A stretch of DNA of 64,000 nucleotides from positions 362,641 to 426,640 of the forward strand of contig JBBTQW010000002.1 of the NCBI GenBank assembly GCA_038065495.1, given 5' to 3'. Shown piece by piece: positions 12,368-63,030 of the stretch; the stretch's first letter is position 1, and every line of letters begins with the position of its first letter. The notes beneath the pieces were generated by a model that ran no database searches, had not been told where the DNA came from, and saw only the letters and a list, made by a program, of their open reading frames with translations. The DNA is from Patescibacteria group bacterium. GTDB taxonomy: Bacteria; Patescibacteriota; Minisyncoccia; Phycocordibacterales; JACOZG01. A program made the position numbers and the translations under genes.

Positions 12368-12570
12368 TGGTTGGTCATCAAGGTCATAAACCTCTAAGCA
12401 ACTAAGCTCTTCCGGGTTTAAACGGGTTTAGCCAAAAGGACAAGGCAGTTACTAGCTTTCGGGCCAGTTTGCTTCCTTTATCCTTGCGGCTTTACCTCAC
12501 TCTCCGCTTTGGCGGAGGGGCTTGCTTAGAGGTTTATGCTCTCGATGTAAGGTGCCAACCGTTCGGGATT
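12368..12570 (+). ncRNA. Candidate structured ncRNA of about 200 nt with extensive 5'/3' end pairing, class unknown (6S-like or SRP-like rod topology)
   Basis: Perfect 17-bp long-range helix 12385-12401 / 12522-12538. Outer GGUUGG/CCAACC (12368-73 / 12555-60). Inner CUCUUCC/GGAGGGG. Local hairpin ctccgc-tttg-gcggag. No ORF. Confidence 0.35.
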
Positions 12571-33241: not shown

Positions 33242-33841
33242 ATGAATAATTTTAAGGATCTGATTAGCCACGATGATTACGAGATAGTGATCTCTGGTCA
33301 AAAGATTTTGGTTAAAGATGGGGTTTTTACACCCGATTCGGTGGTTACCAATTCAACCTCGATTATTCTACGGCATTTGCCTGTTGTAAAAAATTGCGAT
33401 GTCTTGGATATGGGAACCGGTACTGGTGTAATAGCTATTGAGTGTGCTAGGAACCTGGCTCGCCATGTCGTAGCGGTGGATAACAGCGAAGTTGCGCTTG
33501 CTAACGCTCGAGAAAACATTTCTGCATCTAAATTAAAAAATATCGATTTAATAAAATCTGATTTGTATCAGAATGTGACTGGCAGTTTTGATTATATCTT
33601 CGCTAATTTACCGATTGATGATGAGATCTGGGACATGAAAGAACAAACCACGAGCTTGGTCGAGCGGTTTCTACAGCAATCGAGAGAGTATCTTAATAAA
33701 AATGGTCAGATTTATTTAACCTGGTTTTCAATTTCTGACCCTGCTAGAATAAAAGAGATTATAAATAAATTGGGGTACTATTATCAGGTGATTTCAGAAG
33801 AAAAGTTTGGTTTTACTTGGTGTTTATTCTTAATTAGTTAA
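33242..33841 (+). CDS. Class I SAM-dependent methyltransferase (HemK/PrmC- or RsmC-like)
   Basis: VLDMGTGTGVIAIE motif I. FANLPI resembles the NPPY-type motif IV. Confidence 0.65.
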   Translation: MNNFKDLISHDDYEIVISGQKILVKDGVFTPDSVVTNSTSIILRHLPVVKNCDVLDMGTGTGVIAIECARNLARHVVAVDNSEVALANARENISASKLKNIDLIKSDLYQNVTGSFDYIFANLPIDDEIWDMKEQTTSLVERFLQQSREYLNKNGQIYLTWFSISDPARIKEIINKLGYYYQVISEEKFGFTWCLFLIS

Positions 33842-46964: not shown

Positions 46965-47150
46965 TGGAGTAGTGATTGTCTACCAGTGCCCCGCGCGTTC
47001 TACACGCCGGGGCTTTTTTGTTTGCCCAAAATACCGCTCAACCTAGGCCTGGAACCAGCCCTAAGAATAAGGCCAATTTCACCCTCTTTCCCAAATAAGG
47101 CTAAGAATATAGCTTTTCTGACTTCCAAAAGCTTGATCTTGCAAAAACAC

Positions 47151-47180
47151 TTGACAAGTATATGCCACTTATGCTATACT
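47151..47180 (+). promoter_or_regulatory. Promoter TTGACA-N18-TGcTATACT
   Basis: cTTGACAagtatatgccacttaTGCTATACTtaggg. Confidence 0.55.
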
Positions 47181-47262
47181 TAGGGTTGGTAAGTAGTTCT
47201 TTGACTTGCGGTGTAGCAGTCAAAGGCAAAACGATAAACAAGGCAATTTAAGGAGTTTTGTT

Positions 47263-47490
47263 ATGAAGAAGTCTTTTAGAGCTTTTCCGGTCGGTTCGGC
47301 TCAGTACGTAGTTGCTCATGCTGTTTGGCAGAGGTCGCGTGGTCGAGGCCCTTCTTGCTGTTTTGGCGAGGAACGAGAACCTCGTCAGGCCCTGCGGAGC
47401 GCATTTTCTTCCATCAAGACCAGCATCATGCGGGCTGATGGTAACAGACCTCAGACCACCCACTTACTTGACTTGCTCAAAGCAAGATAA
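47263..47490 (+). CDS. Small hypothetical protein (75 aa: MKKSFRAFPVGSAQYVVAHAVWQRSRGRGPSCCFGEE...)
   Basis: AAGGAG RBS 7 nt upstream. Strong promoter. Terminator cacac-aatcgg-gtgtg plus T-rich tail at 47522-47549. Confidence 0.35.
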   Translation: MKKSFRAFPVGSAQYVVAHAVWQRSRGRGPSCCFGEEREPRQALRSAFSSIKTSIMRADGNRPQTTHLLDLLKAR

Positions 47491-47586
47491 CGCTTACCAG
47501 ATACGCGTCAAACTGGAAGCTCACACAATCGGGTGTGGGCTTTTCTTATGCTCAAAAATCTATGCTAGACTGGCGAAAAGATGAGT

Positions 47587-47660
47587 CCCGTTAGAAGTCA
47601 CAGGAGGCGAAGTCTGGCGGGATATTACAAACAGTAAGTAAATATTTAACTTCTAACGGG
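47587..47660 (+). promoter_or_regulatory. glyA 5' leader hairpin: perfect 12-bp inverted repeat cccgttagaagt / acttctaacggg abutting the glyA ATG
   Basis: Arms 47587-47598 and 47649-47660. 50-nt loop contains AGGAGG. Would occlude the glyA translation initiation region. Confidence 0.35.
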
Positions 47661-48863
47661 ATGAAAGATAAACAGATCGAGAAACTGATAAAACGCGAAC
47701 AAAAACGGCAGAAAAGTGTCACTAATTTGATCGCCTCGGAGAATTATGTCTCGCGTGACGTGCTAGATGCGCTGGGTTCGGAATTGAATAATAAATACGC
47801 CGAGGGTTATTCTAAGTTGAGATATTACGGTGGGAATGAAGTGGTGGATGAAGTAGAGAATCTCTGTAAAGAACGCGCTTTAAAACTTTTTAAATTAAGT
47901 GATAAGAAGTGGAATGTAAATGTGCAGGCTTTGTCTGGATCGCCGGCTAATCTCGCCGTTTATCTCGCGCTCGTGCCCTTCGACTTCGCTCAGGGCAAGC
48001 CGGGGAAAATCATGGGTATGAGCCTGGATCACGGCGGACATCTGACGCACGGGCATAGAGTGTCGGCGACTGGCAAAATCTGGCAACAAATTGCTTATGG
48101 TGTTGATCAGAAAACAGAGCAACTTAATTACGCTGAACTCATGAAAATCGCGAAGCGCGAGAAACCGGATATTATTGTGGCTGGTTATACGGCTTATCCG
48201 AGAAAGATAGATTTTAAAAAGTGGCGCGAAATTTCTGATGAAGTGGGAAGTATTCTGATGGTGGATATGTCGCACACGGCTGGGCTGGTCGCTGGCGGGG
48301 CTTATCCTTCGCCTTTCAAGTTTGCCGATGTGGTCACAACCACGACGCACAAGACTCTGCGCGGACCACGCGCGGCGCTGATTTTCTCTAAAATTGATAA
48401 GCGCGAATTGGGTAAAAAAATCGACAAAGCGGTTTTCCCCGGTTTGCAAGGCGGACCGCATGCGAATCAGATTGCTGGTGTGGCCGTGGCTCTGCAAGAA
48501 GCAATGAAGCCGGAGTTTAAGAAGTATGCCAAGCAAGTGGTGGCCAATGCGAAAATTCTCGCACAAGAGCTGAAAAAGCTTGGCTGGAGAATAGTTTCTG
48601 GTGGCACAGACTCGCATTTGATTCTCGTAGACACTTGGCTGGGTGGGGCTGGCGTGAGTGGGAAGGTGGCGAGTGATGCGCTGGAGAAAGCCGGAATTAT
48701 TGTGAACAAGAACACAATCCCAAATGACACGCGCAGTCCAATTGATCCATCGGGGATTAGACTGGGCACGGCGGCGGAGACGACGCGCGGGGCAGGAGCC
48801 AAAGAGATGAAGCAAATTGCCCAGAAAATTGCTAAGATACTGACTAAAGCAAAACATGGCTAA
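47661..48863 (+). CDS. glyA: Serine hydroxymethyltransferase
   Basis: 400 aa. SGSPANLAVYLAL...HGGHLTHGH...TTTHKTLRGPR (PLP-Lys). Contains the in-frame FDFAQGKP repeat insertion. Confidence 0.95.
   Translation: MKDKQIEKLIKREQKRQKSVTNLIASENYVSRDVLDALGSELNNKYAEGYSKLRYYGGNEVVDEVENLCKERALKLFKLSDKKWNVNVQALSGSPANLAVYLALVPFDFAQGKPGKIMGMSLDHGGHLTHGHRVSATGKIWQQIAYGVDQKTEQLNYAELMKIAKREKPDIIVAGYTAYPRKIDFKKWREISDEVGSILMVDMSHTAGLVAGGAYPSPFKFADVVTTTTHKTLRGPRAALIFSKIDKRELGKKIDKAVFPGLQGGPHANQIAGVAVALQEAMKPEFKKYAKQVVANAKILAQELKKLGWRIVSGGTDSHLILVDTWLGGAGVSGKVASDALEKAGIIVNKNTIPNDTRSPIDPSGIRLGTAAETTRGAGAKEMKQIAQKIAKILTKAKHG
47975..48003 (+). repeat. 29-nt in-frame intragenic repeat copy 1 (in glyA): gcccttcgacttcgctcagggcaagccgg
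   Basis: 27 of 29 identical to the copy at 62310-62338. Encodes PFDFAQGKP. Confidence 0.7.
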
Positions 48864-49584: not shown

Positions 49585-51201
49585 ATGCTTAGCGAAAAGA
49601 TCAAAACTTGGCTGGGTGATGAGCGAGCGCAGGTGATGCCAACGGAAAACTTGGCGAATGGCGATTATGCCAGCAACTTGGCGCTAGTCACCAAGCAAGA
49701 TGCGAGTGTTCTGAAAGCCAGATTAGAACAGAATTTATTGCCAGAGATAGAAAAAATAGAAGTGGCTGGCGGTTTCTTGAACTTTTTTCTTAAACCAGAG
49801 TATTTTGCGCAAAATTTGCAGAATATTACTGAACAGCAAGATAAATTTGGCTGGAATAATAATCTGGAACAGAAAAAAATAATTGTTGAGTATACTGATC
49901 CCAATCCGTTCAAAGAATTCCACATCGGGCACTTGATGAGCAACGCTATCGGCGAGAGCATTTCGCGTTTAATTGAAGCAAATAATGCCGAAGTGAAGCG
50001 CGCTTGTTATCAAGGCGATGTGGGCTTGCACGTGGCGAAAGCTATTTGGGGTTACAAGAAAGGAGGAAAAGGTGGTTTTGAATTTGGCAAAGCTTATGCC
50101 CTTGGTTCTTCTGCTTATGAAAATGAGGAGAAGGCAAAAGAGGAAATCCAGAACATTAACCAAAAGATATACGATCGTTCTGATCCAGAAATAAATGAAA
50201 TTTATGATCTTGGTAGAGGAAAAAGCCTTGAGAACTTTCTTTTGATCTATGAGAAGCTTGATACAGACTTTGATTTCTTTTTCTTTGAGAGCGAAACAGG
50301 GGAGCTGGGCAAGAAAATTGTGGAAGAAAATGTGGGGGGGATTTTTGAAAAGAGCGAGAACGCTGTTGTTTTCCATGCCGAAAAGTTTGACGCTAAATTG
50401 CATACGCGCGTCTACATTACAGCGCAAGGTTTGCCGACTTATGAGGCCAAAGAGCTGGGTTTGCATCTCAAAAAGTCGCAAGTTTTCCCTTTCGACCGCT
50501 CGCTGATTATCACCGCCAACGAGCAGGATGGCGTCTTTCGTGTTGGCTTGGCCGCGCTCCGGCAACTTGATCCGGAATTGGCCGATAAAACTCAACATCT
50601 CTCGCACGGCATGTTGCGCTTGCCGACGGGCAAAATGAGTTCCAGAACTGGCGATGTGATTACGGCCGAAAGTTTGATTGCTGAAGTGAAAGAGAAAGTT
50701 TTAGAGAAAATGCCTGCCCGCGCAGGTGGGGAAGAGAAAGATGAGCAGGTTGCCGAGCAAGTCGCCGTGGGGGCGATCAAGTACGCGATTCTCAAGCAGG
50801 CGCCTGGACGGGATGTGATCTTCGACTTTGCCAAATCACTTTCTTTCGAAGGTGACTCCGGTCCGTATCTTCAATACACTTACGCGCGGGCCAAGTCTGT
50901 TCTAGCCAAAGCAAATTCTGGGTCAGAGAAAGTGAACTTAGAAAATTTAGAGCTTAGTGACACAGTTAGACTGCTAGCCCGTTTCCCAGAGATTGTCGCT
51001 CGTGCGAGTGCGGCTTATGCGCCGCAACTCTTGCTTAATTATCTCATTAATTTGGCGAGCAGTTTCAACAGCTTCTACGCGCAGAACAAAATTATTGGCG
51101 GTCCGGAAGAAAAATCTCGCCTCGCGCTCACCCAAGCCGTAGCACAGGTTATGAAAAATGGCCTGTGGTTGCTGGGTATCCAAGCGCCGGAGAAGATGTG
51201 A
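49585..51201 (+). CDS. argS: Arginyl-tRNA synthetase
   Basis: 538 aa. HIGH motif (HIGHLMSNAIGESISRL). DALR anticodon-binding C-terminus. Confidence 0.9.
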   Translation: MLSEKIKTWLGDERAQVMPTENLANGDYASNLALVTKQDASVLKARLEQNLLPEIEKIEVAGGFLNFFLKPEYFAQNLQNITEQQDKFGWNNNLEQKKIIVEYTDPNPFKEFHIGHLMSNAIGESISRLIEANNAEVKRACYQGDVGLHVAKAIWGYKKGGKGGFEFGKAYALGSSAYENEEKAKEEIQNINQKIYDRSDPEINEIYDLGRGKSLENFLLIYEKLDTDFDFFFFESETGELGKKIVEENVGGIFEKSENAVVFHAEKFDAKLHTRVYITAQGLPTYEAKELGLHLKKSQVFPFDRSLIITANEQDGVFRVGLAALRQLDPELADKTQHLSHGMLRLPTGKMSSRTGDVITAESLIAEVKEKVLEKMPARAGGEEKDEQVAEQVAVGAIKYAILKQAPGRDVIFDFAKSLSFEGDSGPYLQYTYARAKSVLAKANSGSEKVNLENLELSDTVRLLARFPEIVARASAAYAPQLLLNYLINLASSFNSFYAQNKIIGGPEEKSRLALTQAVAQVMKNGLWLLGIQAPEKM

Positions 51202-51915: not shown

Positions 51916-52018
51916 TTCGTTCTCCGCTGGTCCGACAGCCCCAAGTCTCGATTAATTTCGAGAGGCGGGGCTTTTTTTGTGCCAAAAAACGCGAAAAATG
52001 CTAGGATGGTTAAACAAA

Positions 52019-55000
52019 ATGTCTGATCCCGAGAATAAAAAGTCTAAAAGTAAAGTCGCTGAGCGGGAGGAGAAAACGCTCGCTTTTTGGCGTGAGCAGA
52101 AGATTTTTGAGAAATCTGTAGAAAAAACAGCTCCAAGGGGGGATTTTGTCTTTTATGACGGTCCACCGTTTGCGACTGGTCGACCCCACTTCGGACACAT
52201 TATGACGGGAACGATTAAAGATGTGACTCTGAGATACAAAACGATGCGCGGTTATCGCGTGCCCCGGCGCTGGGGCTGGGATTGTCACGGTTTGCCAGTG
52301 GAAAACTTGGTGGAGAAAGAATTAAATCTCGCGACCAAGAAAGAAATAGAGAAATTTGGCATCGATAAATTTAATGAAAAAGCGCGGGCGAGTGTCTTGC
52401 GTTACGAAGAAGTGTGGAAAGAGATAATCCCGCGCACGGGACGCTGGGTGGACATGGATCATCCGTACAAGACGATGGACGCGAACTACACAGAATCTGT
52501 GTGGTGGTCGTTCAAAACTTTATTTGAGAAAAAACTGATTTATCAGGGCTTTAAGAGTATGCACTTGTGTCCGAGATGTGAGACAACGCTATCTAACTTC
52601 GAAGTGTCGCAAGGCTACAAAGATATCACGGATATTTCGGTTTACGCGAAATTTAAATTATTAGATGAAGAAAATACTTATTTATTAGCCTGGACTACAA
52701 CGCCGTGGACTCTGCCGGGCAATGTGGCGCTGGCTGTAAAAAGTGATGGAATTTATGTGAAAGCAAAATTAAAAAATAGCGAAGAAAATTATATTTTGCT
52801 GAAAAGTTTAGTGGAGAAAGTGTTAAAAACAGATTTTGAAATTCTAGAAGAATTTGCTGGTGAAAAATTAATTGGCAAAGAATATAAAACTTTGTTTGAT
52901 TATTATGCGAAAACTGGGAAAGTCTACGGTGCCGAATTTGTGAGTACAGAAGAAGGAACGGGGATTGTGCACATTGCGCCAGCTTTTGGTGAAGAAGATT
53001 ATCAGCTTTCGCTGCAAGAAAAATTGGCTTTTGTGCAACATGTGGGAACCGACGGGAGATTCAAGCCAGAAGTCACGGACTTTGCGGGAGAATTGGTAAA
53101 GCCAAAAGAAGCGCATCAAGAAACAGATATCAAGATTATCAAATATCTGGCGGGGAAAAATTTACTTTTTGCGAAAGAGAAAATCGTGCACAGTTATCCG
53201 CACTGTTGGCGTTGCGATACGCCACTCTTGAACTACGCTTCTAGTTCGTGGTTCTTGAAAGTGACTGATCCGGAACTGAAGAATAAAATAATTGCGGAGA
53301 ATCAGAAGGTGGCGTGGACGCCGGCGGAAATCAGAGATGGGCGGTTTGGGAAATGGCTGGAAGGCGCCCGCGATTGGGCGATCTCGCGCTCGCGTTACTG
53401 GGGCGCGACTCTGCCGGTCTGGGTTTGTGAGAAGTGTGAAGCGCAGAAAGTGGTGGGAAGTGTTGAAGAACTAAAAAACTTGTTGCCGAAGTCGGGCAAT
53501 AACTATTTCTTGATACGTCATGGCGAGGCGGAGAGTAATGTGCGCGGAATTGTGACTTCCGAAATGACGGGAAATGGTTTGACGGAGAAAGGTCGGGAGC
53601 AAGTTTTAGAAAAGTTAGGATTTTTTAAAGAAAAAAAGATTGAGTTAATTTTGGCTTCTGATTTATTGCGAGTGAAAGAAACGGCAGAAATTGTTGCTAA
53701 TGGTCTGGGTTTTGATTCAACAAAAGTTATTTATGACGAACGATTGCGCGAACTGAATTTCGGCGATTACAGTGGCGAAGAAATCGCGACTTATCATCAG
53801 CATTTTATTAGCGAAGATGCGCGGTTCACAGTCCGTCCGCCAAAGGGTGAGAATCTCACTGATCTCAAGAAGCGGGTGATGAATTTATTGTATGAATTGG
53901 AAAATAAATATCAGAATCAGAATATTTTGCTGATTTCTCACGGCGATCCAACTTGGTTGATGCAGGAAAAATCTGATGCCACTTATTTACAAAATGGCGA
54001 AATCAAAGAGCTAAATTTTACAGCACTGCCCCACAATTCTGACTATGAATTAGATCTTCACCGGCCGTATATTGATGAAGTAAAACTGAAGTGTGAGAAG
54101 TGTGCGGGAGGAATGACCAGAGTGCCGGAAGTCTTTGACACTTGGTACGATTCTGGCTCGGTGCCATTTGCGTCGCAAAATTTGCGTCAATTAGTGCCGG
54201 CGGATTTTATCGCCGAAGGCTTAGATCAAACTAGAGGTTGGTTCTACACTTTGCTAGTTTTATCTACTGCGCTGTTTAATAAATCGCCTTACAAACAGGT
54301 AGTGGTAAACGGTTTAATACTCGCCGAAGATGGTAAGAAGATGAGCAAGCGCTTGAATAATTATCCGGAACTAACAGACGTGCTGGACAAATATGGCGCG
54401 GATGCACTGAGATATTACTTGATGGCCAGCCCGGCGGTGCGCGCGGAGGACGTGGCTTTCTCCGAGAAAGGCTTAGATGAAGTGGTGAAGAAGATAATTT
54501 TGCGGTTGGAGAATGTGGTGGCTTTCTATGAGTTGTATCAACAAGAGAATCCAGAAAATAAAAATAATTCAGAAATAAAAAAATCAGAAAAAAATAGCGA
54601 AAATATTTTAGACCAGTGGATTCTCGCGCGCTTGGCTCAGTTGAATACAGAAGTGACTGAAAGTCTAGAAAATTACGAATTAGATCAAGCGTCCCGGCCG
54701 TTTAGTTTATTCGTTGACGATTTATCAACTTGGTACTTGCGGCGTTCTAGAAAACGCCCGGAAGCGCTGGTAGTGCTAAAAAAAGTTCTACTAGAATTAG
54801 CAAAACTGCTCGCACCATTTATGCCGTTTATCGCGGAAGAAATTTATCAGAAGTTTAGAGAAAGTTCTGACCCAAAAAGCGTGCATCTGGAAAATTGGCC
54901 TAAAACGGAAAAATCTAACACAGAATCTGATCATGTTTTAGCAGCGATGTCTTTTGCGCGTAGCTTTGTCACAATGGCGTTGATGCAACGGGCTGAGAAA

Positions 55001-55417
55001 GGTATAAAAGTGCGGCAACCTCTTTCGCTTTTGCTGATTAAGCATTCATCTGATTTAGAGCTACCTTTCTGGGATGAAATATCAGAGATTATTAAAGAAG
55101 AAGTGAACGTTAAGAAGGTCGAATTATCTGCTGAATTGACACAGGATGATCCTCCAATTGTTATTTATCTTGATCTGGAAATTACAGCGGAGTTAAAAGC
55201 CGAAGGCGAGTTTCGTGATTTAATCCGCGCGGTGCAAGATGAAAGAAAAAAACTAAAATTAGTACCCGGCCAAATGGCCGAATTAACTCTTAATCCAGAC
55301 AAACAAGCTTTGCTAGAAAAAACTGATAATAAATTAGAATTACAGAAAACTTGTTCTGTTTCTCTGATTAAATTTGACGATCAATGTCCCACCAACTCTA
55401 TCAGACTGAAGGTTTAA
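52019..55417 (+). CDS. ileS: Isoleucyl-tRNA synthetase with an embedded histidine-phosphatase (PGAM-type) domain
   Basis: HIGH (PHFGHIMTGTIKD). Editing site GTGIVHIAPAFGEEDY. KMSKS (KMSKRLNN). Split zinc knuckle CEKCEAQ...CEKCAGG flanking an insert of about 165 aa (LIRHGEAESN...LLISHGDP). Confidence 0.95.
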   Translation: MSDPENKKSKSKVAEREEKTLAFWREQKIFEKSVEKTAPRGDFVFYDGPPFATGRPHFGHIMTGTIKDVTLRYKTMRGYRVPRRWGWDCHGLPVENLVEKELNLATKKEIEKFGIDKFNEKARASVLRYEEVWKEIIPRTGRWVDMDHPYKTMDANYTESVWWSFKTLFEKKLIYQGFKSMHLCPRCETTLSNFEVSQGYKDITDISVYAKFKLLDEENTYLLAWTTTPWTLPGNVALAVKSDGIYVKAKLKNSEENYILLKSLVEKVLKTDFEILEEFAGEKLIGKEYKTLFDYYAKTGKVYGAEFVSTEEGTGIVHIAPAFGEEDYQLSLQEKLAFVQHVGTDGRFKPEVTDFAGELVKPKEAHQETDIKIIKYLAGKNLLFAKEKIVHSYPHCWRCDTPLLNYASSSWFLKVTDPELKNKIIAENQKVAWTPAEIRDGRFGKWLEGARDWAISRSRYWGATLPVWVCEKCEAQKVVGSVEELKNLLPKSGNNYFLIRHGEAESNVRGIVTSEMTGNGLTEKGREQVLEKLGFFKEKKIELILASDLLRVKETAEIVANGLGFDSTKVIYDERLRELNFGDYSGEEIATYHQHFISEDARFTVRPPKGENLTDLKKRVMNLLYELENKYQNQNILLISHGDPTWLMQEKSDATYLQNGEIKELNFTALPHNSDYELDLHRPYIDEVKLKCEKCAGGMTRVPEVFDTWYDSGSVPFASQNLRQLVPADFIAEGLDQTRGWFYTLLVLSTALFNKSPYKQVVVNGLILAEDGKKMSKRLNNYPELTDVLDKYGADALRYYLMASPAVRAEDVAFSEKGLDEVVKKIILRLENVVAFYELYQQENPENKNNSEIKKSEKNSENILDQWILARLAQLNTEVTESLENYELDQASRPFSLFVDDLSTWYLRRSRKRPEALVVLKKVLLELAKLLAPFMPFIAEEIYQKFRESSDPKSVHLENWPKTEKSNTESDHVLAAMSFARSFVTMALMQRAEKGIKVRQPLSLLLIKHSSDLELPFWDEISEIIKEEVNVKKVELSAELTQDDPPIVIYLDLEITAELKAEGEFRDLIRAVQDERKKLKLVPGQMAELTLNPDKQALLEKTDNKLELQKTCSVSLIKFDDQCPTNSIRLKV

Positions 55418-60521: not shown

Positions 60522-61592
60522 ATGGCCGACAATGGCAAAACTCTCAATATTGAGGTGACCGTAGGCACAGTGCTCAAGATTATCTTGGTGCTAGCCGGCG
60601 TTTTTCTCTTGTATTATTTATTTGATCTGGTCCTCGTCATTCTGCTTTCAATCGTCATTGCGTCTTCCGTTGAGCCAGCTACGCGCTCGCTGGCGCGCTA
60701 TCGCGTACCAAGAGTTTTGTCGGTGTTGTTTGTGTATGTTTTTGCTTTCTTTATCTTTGCCGTTTTGATTCCCGTTTTCGTCTTCCCAATCTTCAGCGAT
60801 TTGTCTGACTTAACAGCCACTTTGCCGGCCAGGATTACGAGCTTGCCGTTCTTCTCGCAAGCGCCACCACTCTTGGTGGCCTTTACTGGCAAGCTTTCTG
60901 TGTCTGACATCGTCTCCGGCTTGAGTACCGGCCTTGCGGCAATTCCCCATGGCATTACCGAGACAGCCAGTGTGGTTTTCAATAGTTTGTTTAAATTAAT
61001 TCTGGTAATCGTCATTTCGTTTTATCTGGCTGTACAGCCCAAAGGTATTGAGAGTTTCTTGCGCCTCGTCACGCCAATCCCGCGAGAGCGTTATGTGTTG
61101 GATCTGTGGCAACGTGTCCAGCAGAAGATCGGCATGTGGATGCAAGGTCAGCTCTTGCTCGGCCTCATCATGGGCGTGCTCGTCTTCTTGGGCTTGAGCA
61201 TTTTGCAAGTAGAGCATGCGCTCTTGCTCGCGCTCTTGGCTGCGCTTTTCGAGATTATTCCGTTCTTCGGGCCGGTACTTGCGGCAGTGCCGGCGGTTTT
61301 GCTCGCCTTTAGCTCCAGCCCCACGCTCGGCTTTATGGTTATCGGTCTCTATATCATCATGCAGCAATTTGAGAATCACTTGATTTATCCACTCGTCGTG
61401 CGCAAGATTGTGGGCGTGCCGCCACTACTCGTGATTTTGTCGTTGATTATCGGCGCGCAATTGGCCGGCTTTATGGGCCTCATTCTCGCTGTGCCGGTAG
61501 CGACGATCTTGATGGAAATGTTGTCAGATTTTGAGAAGAGCAAATATCTCTTTGAGAAAGTGGAAGAAAAAGTGGAACAAGCGAATGCCTAA
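60522..61592 (+). CDS. AI-2E family transporter (UPF0118/PerM-like permease)
   Basis: About 356 aa, 7-8 TM helices. Conserved C-terminal region LIYPLVVRKIVGVPPLLVILSLIIGAQLAGFMGLILAVPVA. Confidence 0.8.
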   Translation: MADNGKTLNIEVTVGTVLKIILVLAGVFLLYYLFDLVLVILLSIVIASSVEPATRSLARYRVPRVLSVLFVYVFAFFIFAVLIPVFVFPIFSDLSDLTATLPARITSLPFFSQAPPLLVAFTGKLSVSDIVSGLSTGLAAIPHGITETASVVFNSLFKLILVIVISFYLAVQPKGIESFLRLVTPIPRERYVLDLWQRVQQKIGMWMQGQLLLGLIMGVLVFLGLSILQVEHALLLALLAALFEIIPFFGPVLAAVPAVLLAFSSSPTLGFMVIGLYIIMQQFENHLIYPLVVRKIVGVPPLLVILSLIIGAQLAGFMGLILAVPVATILMEMLSDFEKSKYLFEKVEEKVEQANA

Positions 61593-63030
61593 ACGGTTCT
61601 ATCTCACTACCACGTTGCCTTATGTTAACGCCGATCCTCACATCGGCTTTGCTTTAGAAATTATCCAGGCGGATATCATTGCGCGTTATCGCGAGCTACT
61701 GGGCGAAGAAGTTTTCTTCAACACCGGCACTGATGAGCACGGTTTGAAAATTTACAGGAAGGCGCAAGAATTAAATCGCGGCCCGCAAGAATATGTGGAT
61801 GAGTTTGCAAGCAAGTTCAAGAATTTGCAAAATATTTTGGGTCTGAGTGAGAAGTTAAATTTTATCCGGACAACCAATCCTGAACACAAAAAATCAGCGC
61901 AGAAATTCTGGGAAATTTGTCAGACTAATGGTTTTATTTACAAAAAAGATTATCAAGTCAAGTATTGCGTGGGTTGCGAACTGGAGAAAACTGATTCTGA
62001 ACTAGAAAATAATAAATGCGCGATTCATCCAAACTTAGAAATAGAATTAATTTCTGAAGAGAATTACTTTTTTAAATTTTCTAGTTTTCAGGAGAAATTA
62101 CTAGATTTATATAATAAAAATCCGGACTTTGTTATTCCAAATTCGCGTCTAAACGAAATAAAAAGTTTTGTGGCGCGGGGCTTAGAAGATTTCTCTATCT
62201 CAAGACTGAAAAATAAAATGCCTTGGGGCGTGGCCGTGCCGGGCGATCCCGAACACGTGATGTATGTGTGGTTCGACGCGCTGGTGAACTACATTTCTTG
62301 TCTCGGCTGGCCCTTCGACTCCGCTCAGGACAAGCCGGATAATTTTGTAAAGTTCTGGCCGGGCGTTCAATTTGCTGGCAAAGATAATCTGCGCCAGCAA
62401 GCGGCGATGTGGCAGGCGATGTTGCTCGCGGCCGGATTGCCAAACTCGAAACAGATTATCATCCACGGCTTCATCACCTCAGCTGGCCAGAAGATGAGCA
62501 AAAGTTTGGGGAATGTTATCGATCCGGTGAAATTAGTAGCAGAATATGGCACGGATGCTCTGCGCTATTATCTCGCGCGGCATGTGCAGCCGTTTGAAGA
62601 TAGTGATTTCACGCTAGAAAAGTTCAAAGAAGCTTACAATGCTAATCTCGCGAATGGCTTGGGAAATTTAGTGAGCCGTGTGATGAAGATGGCGACGGAT
62701 AATTTAGAAAAACCGGTAGAAATTAACTGGCGAAATATTTCTGACTTTGCTGATCTCACAAAATATTTAAATAATTACGAATATAGTCAGGCGCTAGATG
62801 AGATCTGGAAGCACATCGCCAAGCATGACGAATATATTCAAGAAACGAAGCCGTTTAGTTTGATCAAAACTGATCCAGATCAAGCGCGAGAAATTATTGC
62901 TAAACTGGTGCAAGGTTTGGCAGATTTGGCCGTTTGCTTAGAACCAATCATGCCCTCAACTTCGGCAAAAATAAAACAAGCAGTTCAAGGAAATAAAATG
63001 CCGGAGGCGCTCTTTCCAAGAAAAGAATAA
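61585..63030 (+). CDS. metG: Methionyl-tRNA synthetase (short form, no C-terminal Trbp111 domain)
   Basis: TTTLPYVNADPHIGFALE (HIGH-type). KMSKSLGNVIDP. Contains the in-frame PFDSAQDKP repeat insertion. Confidence 0.9.
   Translation: MPKRFYLTTTLPYVNADPHIGFALEIIQADIIARYRELLGEEVFFNTGTDEHGLKIYRKAQELNRGPQEYVDEFASKFKNLQNILGLSEKLNFIRTTNPEHKKSAQKFWEICQTNGFIYKKDYQVKYCVGCELEKTDSELENNKCAIHPNLEIELISEENYFFKFSSFQEKLLDLYNKNPDFVIPNSRLNEIKSFVARGLEDFSISRLKNKMPWGVAVPGDPEHVMYVWFDALVNYISCLGWPFDSAQDKPDNFVKFWPGVQFAGKDNLRQQAAMWQAMLLAAGLPNSKQIIIHGFITSAGQKMSKSLGNVIDPVKLVAEYGTDALRYYLARHVQPFEDSDFTLEKFKEAYNANLANGLGNLVSRVMKMATDNLEKPVEINWRNISDFADLTKYLNNYEYSQALDEIWKHIAKHDEYIQETKPFSLIKTDPDQAREIIAKLVQGLADLAVCLEPIMPSTSAKIKQAVQGNKMPEALFPRKE
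62310..62338 (+). repeat. 29-nt in-frame intragenic repeat copy 2 (in metG): gcccttcgactccgctcaggacaagccgg
   Basis: Encodes PFDSAQDKP within a variable surface linker of MetRS. Confidence 0.7.

Follow-up and report, generated by a model that had tools for sequence, protein, structure and literature searches.

A very small dispersed hairpin repeat found in frame within glyA and metG of a Patescibacteria bacterium and at loci of many other bacterial phyla

INTRODUCTION

Two short, nearly identical segments lie in frame in two essential genes, glyA and metG, of a 64,000-nucleotide (nt) stretch of the genome of a Patescibacteria group bacterium (assembly GCA_038065495.1, contig JBBTQW010000002.1, positions 362,641 to 426,640; ‘the window’ means this whole stretch), and the subject here is the 24-nt dispersed repeat of which they are probably copies. 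Compared by description and not by the sequences of SDR1–8, the closest described system is that of the small dispersed repeats (SDRs) of Nostoc punctiforme. Elhai and colleagues in 2008 reportedly found SDR1–8 in N. punctiforme and relatives as dispersed units of 21–27 nt having a hairpin with compensatory changes; these are also said to occur in tandem heptamer arrays and nested in their own copies, to lack an associated gene and to have been inferred to be recently mobile. The repeat considered here is like them in its 24-nt length, in its presence at no fewer than 120 loci in unrelated contexts, in its hairpin with compensatory changes, and in being found both in heptamer arrays and nested in itself (L131, L132, L071, L040; L and P numbers are our working handles). 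It is unlike them in its documented presence within RNase P RNA and, in frame, within essential genes, and in its spread over many phyla including Patescibacteria where SDRs are reported from Nostocaceae only. A later account found none of SDR-like type outside that family (PMC5861425). In the first 100 kb of the N. punctiforme plasmid pNPUN01 there are no copies of the present repeat.

Two other groups of small inserts invite comparison. The Rickettsia palindromic elements of Ogata and colleagues (reportedly described in 2000; cited in PMC3184786) are said to be selfish repeats 100–150 bp long and to lie in frame in coding genes, essential ones included, and also in RNA genes. They are tolerated as stop-free, surface-located additions and are known only from Rickettsia and its close relatives. 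The present repeat is similarly in frame and stop-free (in glyA, metG, argS, valS, rpoC and others) and is similarly found in RNA genes; its unit, however, is about a fifth of their size and it occurs in many phyla. The GC clusters and byp elements of yeast mitochondria are small GC-rich hairpin inserts in coding and rRNA genes, and the likeness extends to their residence in AT-richer genomes, but they belong to a eukaryotic organelle, their sequences are unrelated and byps need translational bypassing.

REP (repetitive extragenic palindromic) and REPIN sequences are short GC-rich hairpins of high copy number whose presumed mobiliser, acting in trans via a single-stranded hairpin, is RAYT, a Y1 HUH enzyme (PMC3116915; PMC3733652). 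They are extragenic, specific to a species or genus, bear a GTAG or CGTC tag, are often inverted doublets and flank a RAYT gene (PMC3116915; PMC3733652). In contrast, neither the consensus of our repeat, CCCTTCGACTNCGCTCAGGRCAAGCC, nor its complement has either tag at either end, about half of its copies are inside long open reading frames (ORFs), its arrays are of direct 24-nt units and, generic families apart, no gene family was found to recur as its neighbour. Miniature inverted-repeat transposable elements differ from it in being ~100–400 bp long and in the target-site duplications and terminal inverted repeats that are missing from its clean insertion in argS (below). Diversity-generating retroelements, CRISPR repeats and inteins were considered and set aside: the size is wrong, and adenine-specific variation, spacer arrays and splicing motifs are all lacking. 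We know of no resemblance to conserved segments of rRNA, tRNA, tmRNA, RNase P RNA or signal recognition particle RNA, a matter that was not formally tested, and a search of the literature yielded nothing describing the motif, its 12-nt loop or the peptides it encodes.

THE TWO COPIES IN THE WINDOW

The segments GCCCTTCGACTTCGCTCAGGGCAAGCCGG in glyA (47975-48003, forward strand) and GCCCTTCGACTCCGCTCAGGACAAGCCGG in metG (62310-62338, forward strand) are identical at 27 of 29 positions, as the original prediction, made from the sequence alone, had stated. Its further assertion, that chance identity of this extent is negligible, is borne out by dinucleotide-preserving shuffles, 100 of which gave no match where none was expected by chance. 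The length of 29 nt that it assigned to the repeat is too great. The unit proper is 24 nt (26 with the CC that usually follows), and the 5′ G and 3′ G/GG that the two segments also share belong to native codons, for Val or Trp before and for Pro plus Gly or Asp after; this origin of the flanking bases is supported by a related MetRS copy (L133) that ends ...GCCGAAT. So delimited, the glyA unit, CCCTTCGACTTCGCTCAGGGCAAG, occupies 47976-47999 (forward), has no mismatch to the pan-bacterial consensus and with the trailing CC (to 48001) constitutes the 26-mer used in the scans below. The metG unit, CCCTTCGACTCCGCTCAGGACAAG (62311-62334, forward), differs from that in glyA solely at two positions that are polymorphic family-wide. 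G+C makes up 65% of the motif and ~46% of the window as a whole. No further copy was detected in the window, even with half-motifs at three mismatches. Each of the two host proteins is encoded in identical form on three contigs (sources given as NCBI, Logan and ENA, the longest contig being of 443 kb), and so an assembly artefact is unlikely.

A hairpin-like sequence at ~33640-33665 on the reverse strand, aaaccgc-TCGACCAAGCTC-gtggttt, has a 7-bp stem and a loop two mismatches from that of the family; it sits within a methyltransferase ORF (33242-33841) and is probably due to chance, 0.1 such being expected per window.

The first host gene, glyA (47661-48863, forward), specifies serine hydroxymethyltransferase (SHMT), as judged from its match to PF00464, its homologues and its long ORF. 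The second, metG (61585-63030, forward), specifies methionyl-tRNA synthetase (MetRS); in the database the protein begins with the ATG at 61585, and the mechanically called ORF begins at 61531. That both segments are in frame, as had been claimed, is confirmed by their reading within these ORFs. In SHMT the copy reads PFDFAQGKP (residues 106-114), directly ahead of the conserved GGHLTHG block, and in the AlphaFold model (mean predicted local distance difference test score, pLDDT, 83.7) it falls between a helix (93-104) and a strand (116-120). In MetRS it reads PFDSAQDKP (residues 243-251), and is modelled as coil between two short helices (mean pLDDT 91.8), with the block 241-250 averaging 70 where the neighbouring blocks average 91 and 86. 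In these confident models both inserts are thus placed in coil or turn regions between secondary-structure elements, which agrees with the surface-loop location earlier proposed. From its in-frame, stop-free sequence the inserted peptide is inferred to be translated, without bypassing.

Comparison with relatives indicates that the inserts are additions. Among the best 120 SHMT homologues the commonest loop is ALV-PLG-GKIMGM where the window has ALV-PFDFAQGKP-GKIMGM. The three closest SHMT relatives (92–93% amino acid identity) carry PLG or PLNS in place of the insert, and it is absent from the closest relatives L121 and L122. In L122, whose glyA is the closest insert-free one (84% nt identity), the relevant sequence is GTC CCC TTG GGC GGT CGA ATC, and at the same place the window has GTG CCC TTC GAC TTC GCT CAG GGC AAG CCG GGG AAA ATC, so that the replacement of a short SHMT loop, another of the earlier claims, holds. 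For MetRS, a 91%-identical protein in L133 also has the insert (as FDSAQGKP); it is absent in L134 (84%), and relatives at 84% or less read GWP-xDx-E. The residues are therefore not ancestral. Since it is common to L133, the metG copy is the older; the glyA copy, being a perfect match to the consensus and absent from relatives whose glyA is ~84% identical in nt, is the younger.

More than 110 of the 120 SHMT homologues are without the insert, as is likewise so for MetRS, and the nearest neighbour of each bearer lineage is also insert-free, at up to 93% identity. Nevertheless the same loops have been occupied more than once, in at least four SHMT lineages (P0001, P0012, P0030, P0114) and at least five MetRS lineages, one of the latter with four tandem units. 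This recurrence is surely in part a selection filter, the loop being one that tolerates inserts. In two other SHMT lineages (L138 6001-7197 and L139 172-1374) the SHMT loop in question has unrelated perfect GC hairpins, CCCTGCCTG-CCGG-CAGGCAGGG (encoding ALPAGRQG) and CCCCGCC-AAA-GGCGGGG (LPRQRRG), from which it appears that several families of hairpin mini-inserts colonise it.

ANATOMY OF THE UNIT

The 24-nt unit is CCCTTCGAC-TN-CGCTCAGGRCAAG, usually with CC next. As folded, a short stem, CCCT/AGGG, closes a 12-nt loop, TCGRCTNCGCTC, and is followed by a tail CAAG, again usually with CC thereafter. When copies are aligned on the core, the information content of the flanks is ~0 bits, the flanks being unrelated, and copies found by the inner core alone still start with CCCT and end with AAGCC, i.e. 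the ends are sharp. Where copies follow one another head to tail they share the terminal CC, so that the period is 24 nt (with Tandem Repeats Finder, 4.1 copies at 97% match and period 24 in L109, and an array of the same period in the MetRS gene of L135), and these tandem arrays are direct repeats. In ~10 loci (e.g. L001, L007, L008, L013, L049, L059 and L094) the unit lies exactly between two units of a heptamer array. It is also found nested: L131 has a 24-nt unit within another copy's loop, at GACT^CCGCTC, and L132 has three such, with cases of this type also in L071, L040, L074, L020 and L083. About 60 degraded copies with 3–7 mismatches occur beside intact ones; a reversed-sequence control gave none.

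Copies are found in both orientations, and their contexts include intergenic DNA. Five of the six reading frames are stop-free, and encode PFDxAQGK, PSTSLRAS, LRLRSGQA, LALSEVEG and ACPERSRR. About half of the copies (62 of 122) are within long open frames, where these five are used 26, 9, 10, 11 and 6 times respectively and the stop-containing frame never. Besides SHMT and MetRS, the in-frame hosts include rpoC (RNA polymerase beta′, L119), an S9 peptidase, HsdS, a NiFe-hydrogenase-like protein and a radical-SAM enzyme. Valyl-tRNA synthetase (ValRS) has in-frame copies at two sites (L015, L107), that in L107 being directly after LGW-P, which is the structural position of the window's MetRS insert. 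A Saccharibacteria RNase P RNA gene (L018 1472-1855, reverse strand) has a copy within it at 1638-1663. Given that one and the same 26-mer is present between genes, within RNA genes and in five frames of coding DNA, its nt identity is not codon-driven, and codon constraint, which the original prediction allowed for but thought unlikely, is not the explanation.

Two further sets of copies may be mentioned. The flanks at two other Patescibacteria loci (L106, L099) are similar to those of the L018 copy; they have no match in Rfam, for which divergence of their RNase P RNAs may be the reason. The HsdS genes of three different cyanobacteria carry the element inside (L036, L048 and plasmid NZ_CP016480.1 5245-5271).

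The case for a hairpin is made by variation within the family. A search with the loop alone (TCGRCTNCGCTC) gave, beyond the CCCT/AGGG form, 28 instances with other flanks, and in 24 of these at least four contiguous complementary bases abut the loop. Examples of the alternative stems are TTCGTTCGTT/AACGAACG, TGTTGGCT/AGCCAACA, GGTC/GACC and GGGGT/ACCCC, and in all there are more than 20 different complementary stems around the conserved loop. In 35 hairpins chosen by loop alone, each of the four pairs adjoining the loop is represented by several Watson–Crick pair types; the stem covariation score is 0.618, a value attained by none of 500 shuffles (which gave 0.198), and sliding the partners gives 0.164 at most. 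It is on this covariation, and not on folding energy, that the hairpin structure rests. No Rfam family matches it.

TAXONOMIC RANGE

One genome per species (the GTDB representatives) was scanned with the pattern CCCTTCGACNNCGCTCAGGNCAAGCC, which has 23 specified bases of the 26-mer and for which, by our own arithmetic, ~0.02 chance matches are expected in 2 × 596 Gb. No fewer than 120 loci match, and by their record titles they belong to 12 phyla or more. With their unrelated flanks they justify the description ‘tiny dispersed repeat’ given to the pair at the outset, and the motif is abundant elsewhere rather than being confined to glyA and metG. Among the matches listed, Acidobacteriota account for 30 loci, Chloroflexota for 28, Patescibacteria for 20 and Cyanobacteria for 16 (with cultured Nodularia, Anabaena, Sphaerospermopsis, Nostoc and Leptothoe represented), followed by Proteobacteria (8), Bacteroidota (5), Planctomycetota (3), Desulfobacterota (2) and one each for Ignavibacteria, Verrucomicrobia, Nitrospirota, Gemmatimonadota and Spirochaetes, with three unclassified; Firmicutes, Actinobacteria and Archaea have none among them. 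Complete plasmids of cultured Planktothrix, Microcystis, Picosynechococcus, Nostoc, Pseudanabaena and Methylomonas carry the element. It was not found in 5,426 Escherichia coli genomes, and in cultured phages matches are at chance level, the element being essentially absent.

Phages were considered as vectors and set aside, only seven IMG/VR contigs having the element. Three viral or proviral contigs (L131, L132 and L128) have 4–7 family members per 9–14 kb, a density far above that of bacterial loci, and their copies include nested ones and variants in which pairing joins the 3′ tail to the 5′ flank.

GAIN AND DECAY

One comparison is provided by argS, in which the window has an empty target site, TGG CTG^GGT GAT (49609-49620, forward, with the break at 49614/49615). 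At this site L122 has exactly 24 nt, CTT GCC CTG AGT GGA GTC GAA GGG, which is the repeat in reverse orientation and encodes LALSGVEG. The filled and empty sites of L122 and the window reveal neither target duplication nor target loss, and there are no terminal inverted repeats. A decayed form, LALSKSEG, is present in a further relative, and the closest relative of the arginyl-tRNA synthetase (87%) has the site empty. That so clean an insertion distinguishes a close relative from the window points to gain being recent and ongoing. A second SHMT loop in L140 provides another clean gain of 24 nt, in frame 2, its stem having changed on both sides to give CCCC/GGGG. The nested copies and those set between heptamer units are further signs of recent mobility. 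The genes that hold the element are not the same in sister genomes, and older in-frame copies have decayed both synonymously and non-synonymously (PFNSAQVKP, PFDIAQGKP, FDKAQGKPSDDTQGKP...).

Upstream of argS in L122 there is also an intergenic copy (12405-12430, reverse strand), after a terminator-like hairpin, where the window has a 25-nt spacer.

ORIGIN OF THE COPIES

Our reading, to which we give a probability of about 0.68, is that the two window segments come from a dispersed hairpin repeat, very small and non-autonomous, which spreads as DNA with the help of a trans-acting mobiliser. A factor, whether protein or ribonucleoprotein, would recognise the loop and stem and would copy or move the unit; for a loop to be conserved while its stem covaries implies that sequence and structure are both recognised. 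Our preferred guess is an HUH/Y1 enzyme that handles single-strand hairpins (RAYT or IS200-like) and acts in trans. What would favour such a candidate is the analogy with RAYT/REP and IS200/IS605, which likewise yield precise ends without duplications. The unit of 8 codons, encoding peptides rich in Pro, Gly, Asp and Ser, would land where loops of essential proteins are permissive, or at the periphery of RNase P RNA. Its shortness, its freedom from stops in five of six frames and the permissiveness of such sites are what would let the insertions escape purifying selection, and they would stand out most in Patescibacteria genomes, which are gene-dense and leave little room between genes. Both window copies would have landed at G^CCG with 6–9 nt of the native loop lost or replaced and, once inserted, would decay as ordinary coding sequence.

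Several observations weigh against this. When the 2,523 ORFs of 120 loci were clustered all against all, no linked mobilising gene emerged, the families recurrent near copies being only generic ones (response regulators, ABC transporters, TPR proteins, TonB receptors, HsdS and SdhA). Exact copies appear to be few per genome, two in 64 kb here and one to six loci per genome among the matches listed. The stem is only 3–5 bp, and on the coding strand shuffled sequence folds as well as either window copy; three of the four combinations of strand and copy are not significant, the metG minus strand having z = −2.2. Every SHMT with the insert has KPGK in place of the GGT of its neighbours, and a derived GGT AAA and derived synonymous changes are common to P0012 and P0114, from which some of the same-site SHMT recurrences could be allele-to-allele transfers of a patch. 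Then there are the junctions. Neither window copy is clean: ~9–12 nt of native loop gave way to 27 nt, for a net gain of 18 nt in glyA and 15 in metG. Of the ‘in-frame insertion’ of the original prediction, then, the gain of extra codons in loops stands and its being an insertion without loss of native nt does not. Moreover the native codons at the junctions resemble the ends of the element, CCC TTG GGC of the SHMT loop being comparable to CCCTT...GGGC, and at both window sites the copy is directly 5′ of a native Pro codon (G^CCG).

Could the spread have required no dedicated enzyme at all? Template switching guided by microhomology is one such route, and short-patch gap repair (ectopic gene conversion) another. 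The growing strand, with CCCTT, CC or CTTGTCC at its end, would anneal to an existing copy, copy ~20 nt of it and return, and sites whose native codons happen to be element-like would be hot spots. To the features of glyA and metG just described can be added those of the main SHMT loop of L140, where the native GCG CTT GTC CC resembles the reverse-strand start CTTGTCC and the outcome is also a replacement, with a net gain of 6 nt; that the same loop has been struck repeatedly and in both orientations, and that no linked enzyme has turned up, likewise fit such copying. For the two window copies, with replacement at element-like junctions, it is no worse an explanation than transposition. What it does not readily provide is constancy of 24-nt ends in targets as unrelated as argS, the second SHMT loop, ~10 heptamer arrays and at least four nested copies, nor a reason for a 12-nt loop to be kept across more than 12 phyla with covarying stems, since passive copying would not maintain it. 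We regard enzyme-free spread as unlikely, albeit the most serious competitor. In essence the original prediction is upheld. Of the two origins that it entertained, a mobile-element footprint or a gene-conversion tract, the former is probably right in that there is a mobile repeat family, and the window copies themselves fit either.

Explanations at the level of the protein fare much worse. If PFDxAQGKP were a selected functional peptide, a binding or modification site perhaps, with the nt identity a by-product of recent gene-to-gene transfer, its recurrence at the same SHMT and MetRS loops and the predominance of the PFDxAQGK frame in long ORFs (26 of 62) would be understandable. However, the same DNA is used in four other frames and both orientations and is present in intergenic DNA, heptamer arrays and RNase P RNA, older copies drift at non-synonymous sites and the closest relatives function without the peptide, all of which makes it very improbable. 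Scarcely worth entertaining is that the segment is an ancestral loop lost in relatives, or an artefact of assembly or binning. Its presence in several distant lineages of SHMT and MetRS is as the former would have it, but the great majority of homologues of each protein do not, and precise deletion from PFDFAQGKPGK could not regenerate the PLGGT of the neighbours. Nor is a perfect consensus match of 65% G+C inside a gene of 46% G+C what either version would lead one to expect, and against an artefact there is also the presence of each protein on three contigs and of the element in finished plasmids and the genomes of cultured strains.

IMPLICATIONS

A bolder form of the mobile-repeat reading can be advanced only tentatively, the odds being somewhat against it. 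This is that the repeat is the smallest mobile genetic element of pan-bacterial range, that its 12-nt loop is the recognition site of a shared or host-universal activity handling single-strand DNA or RNA, and that its precise insertion, with a preference for hairpin loops and element-like sequences, remodels loops of essential proteins and RNAs in gene-dense genomes; on it, the two essential genes here are caught shortly after the element's entry. If this is true, a sequence of 24 nt with no gene of its own has been copied intact across much of the bacterial tree, which would mean an unrecognised and widely shared mobilising activity and would lower the known size limit of mobile DNA. Short insertions in conserved proteins and RNAs are a known oddity of candidate-phyla-radiation genomes, and the repeat would supply a mechanism for short loop insertions in such conserved proteins as aminoacyl-tRNA synthetases, SHMT and RNA polymerase, and in RNase P RNA.

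There would be practical consequences too. Filled and empty sites would be sharp strain-level markers, and unmasked copies may create spurious local similarity between unrelated proteins. The repeat is probably also behind a large class of recurrent ‘junk’ peptides of metagenomic protein databases (PFDxAQGK, LRLRSGQA, PSTSLRAS, LALSEVEG, ACPERSRR).

OTHER FEATURES OF THE WINDOW

The window's isoleucyl-tRNA synthetase (IleRS; 51977-55417, forward; 1146 amino acids) has a complete histidine-phosphatase (His_Phos_1) domain, residues 511-662, inside its catalytic core. The same architecture is present in the ileS of a related genome (L140 7774-10004), and the ValRS of L015 has an RHGE-type domain at a position similar to that of the IleRS insert.

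Upstream of glyA there are ~700 nt (46965-47660) with no convincing ORF, the genome being otherwise compact, and no Rfam match was obtained in this interval even at an E-value of 1. It includes a promoter-like box, cttgacaag...tgctatact (~47151-47181), and a possible basic ORF of 75 amino acids with an ATG at 47264 and an AAGGAG Shine–Dalgarno sequence; an inverted repeat (~47584-47600 and 47646-47661) overlaps the glyA start codon. A conserved 38-nt promoter-like repeat, CTTGACAA-N17-TGCTATACT..., recurs at ~7273, 9800, 14351, 23302 and 47151, upstream of several genes or operons, and is probably the organism's strong housekeeping promoter.

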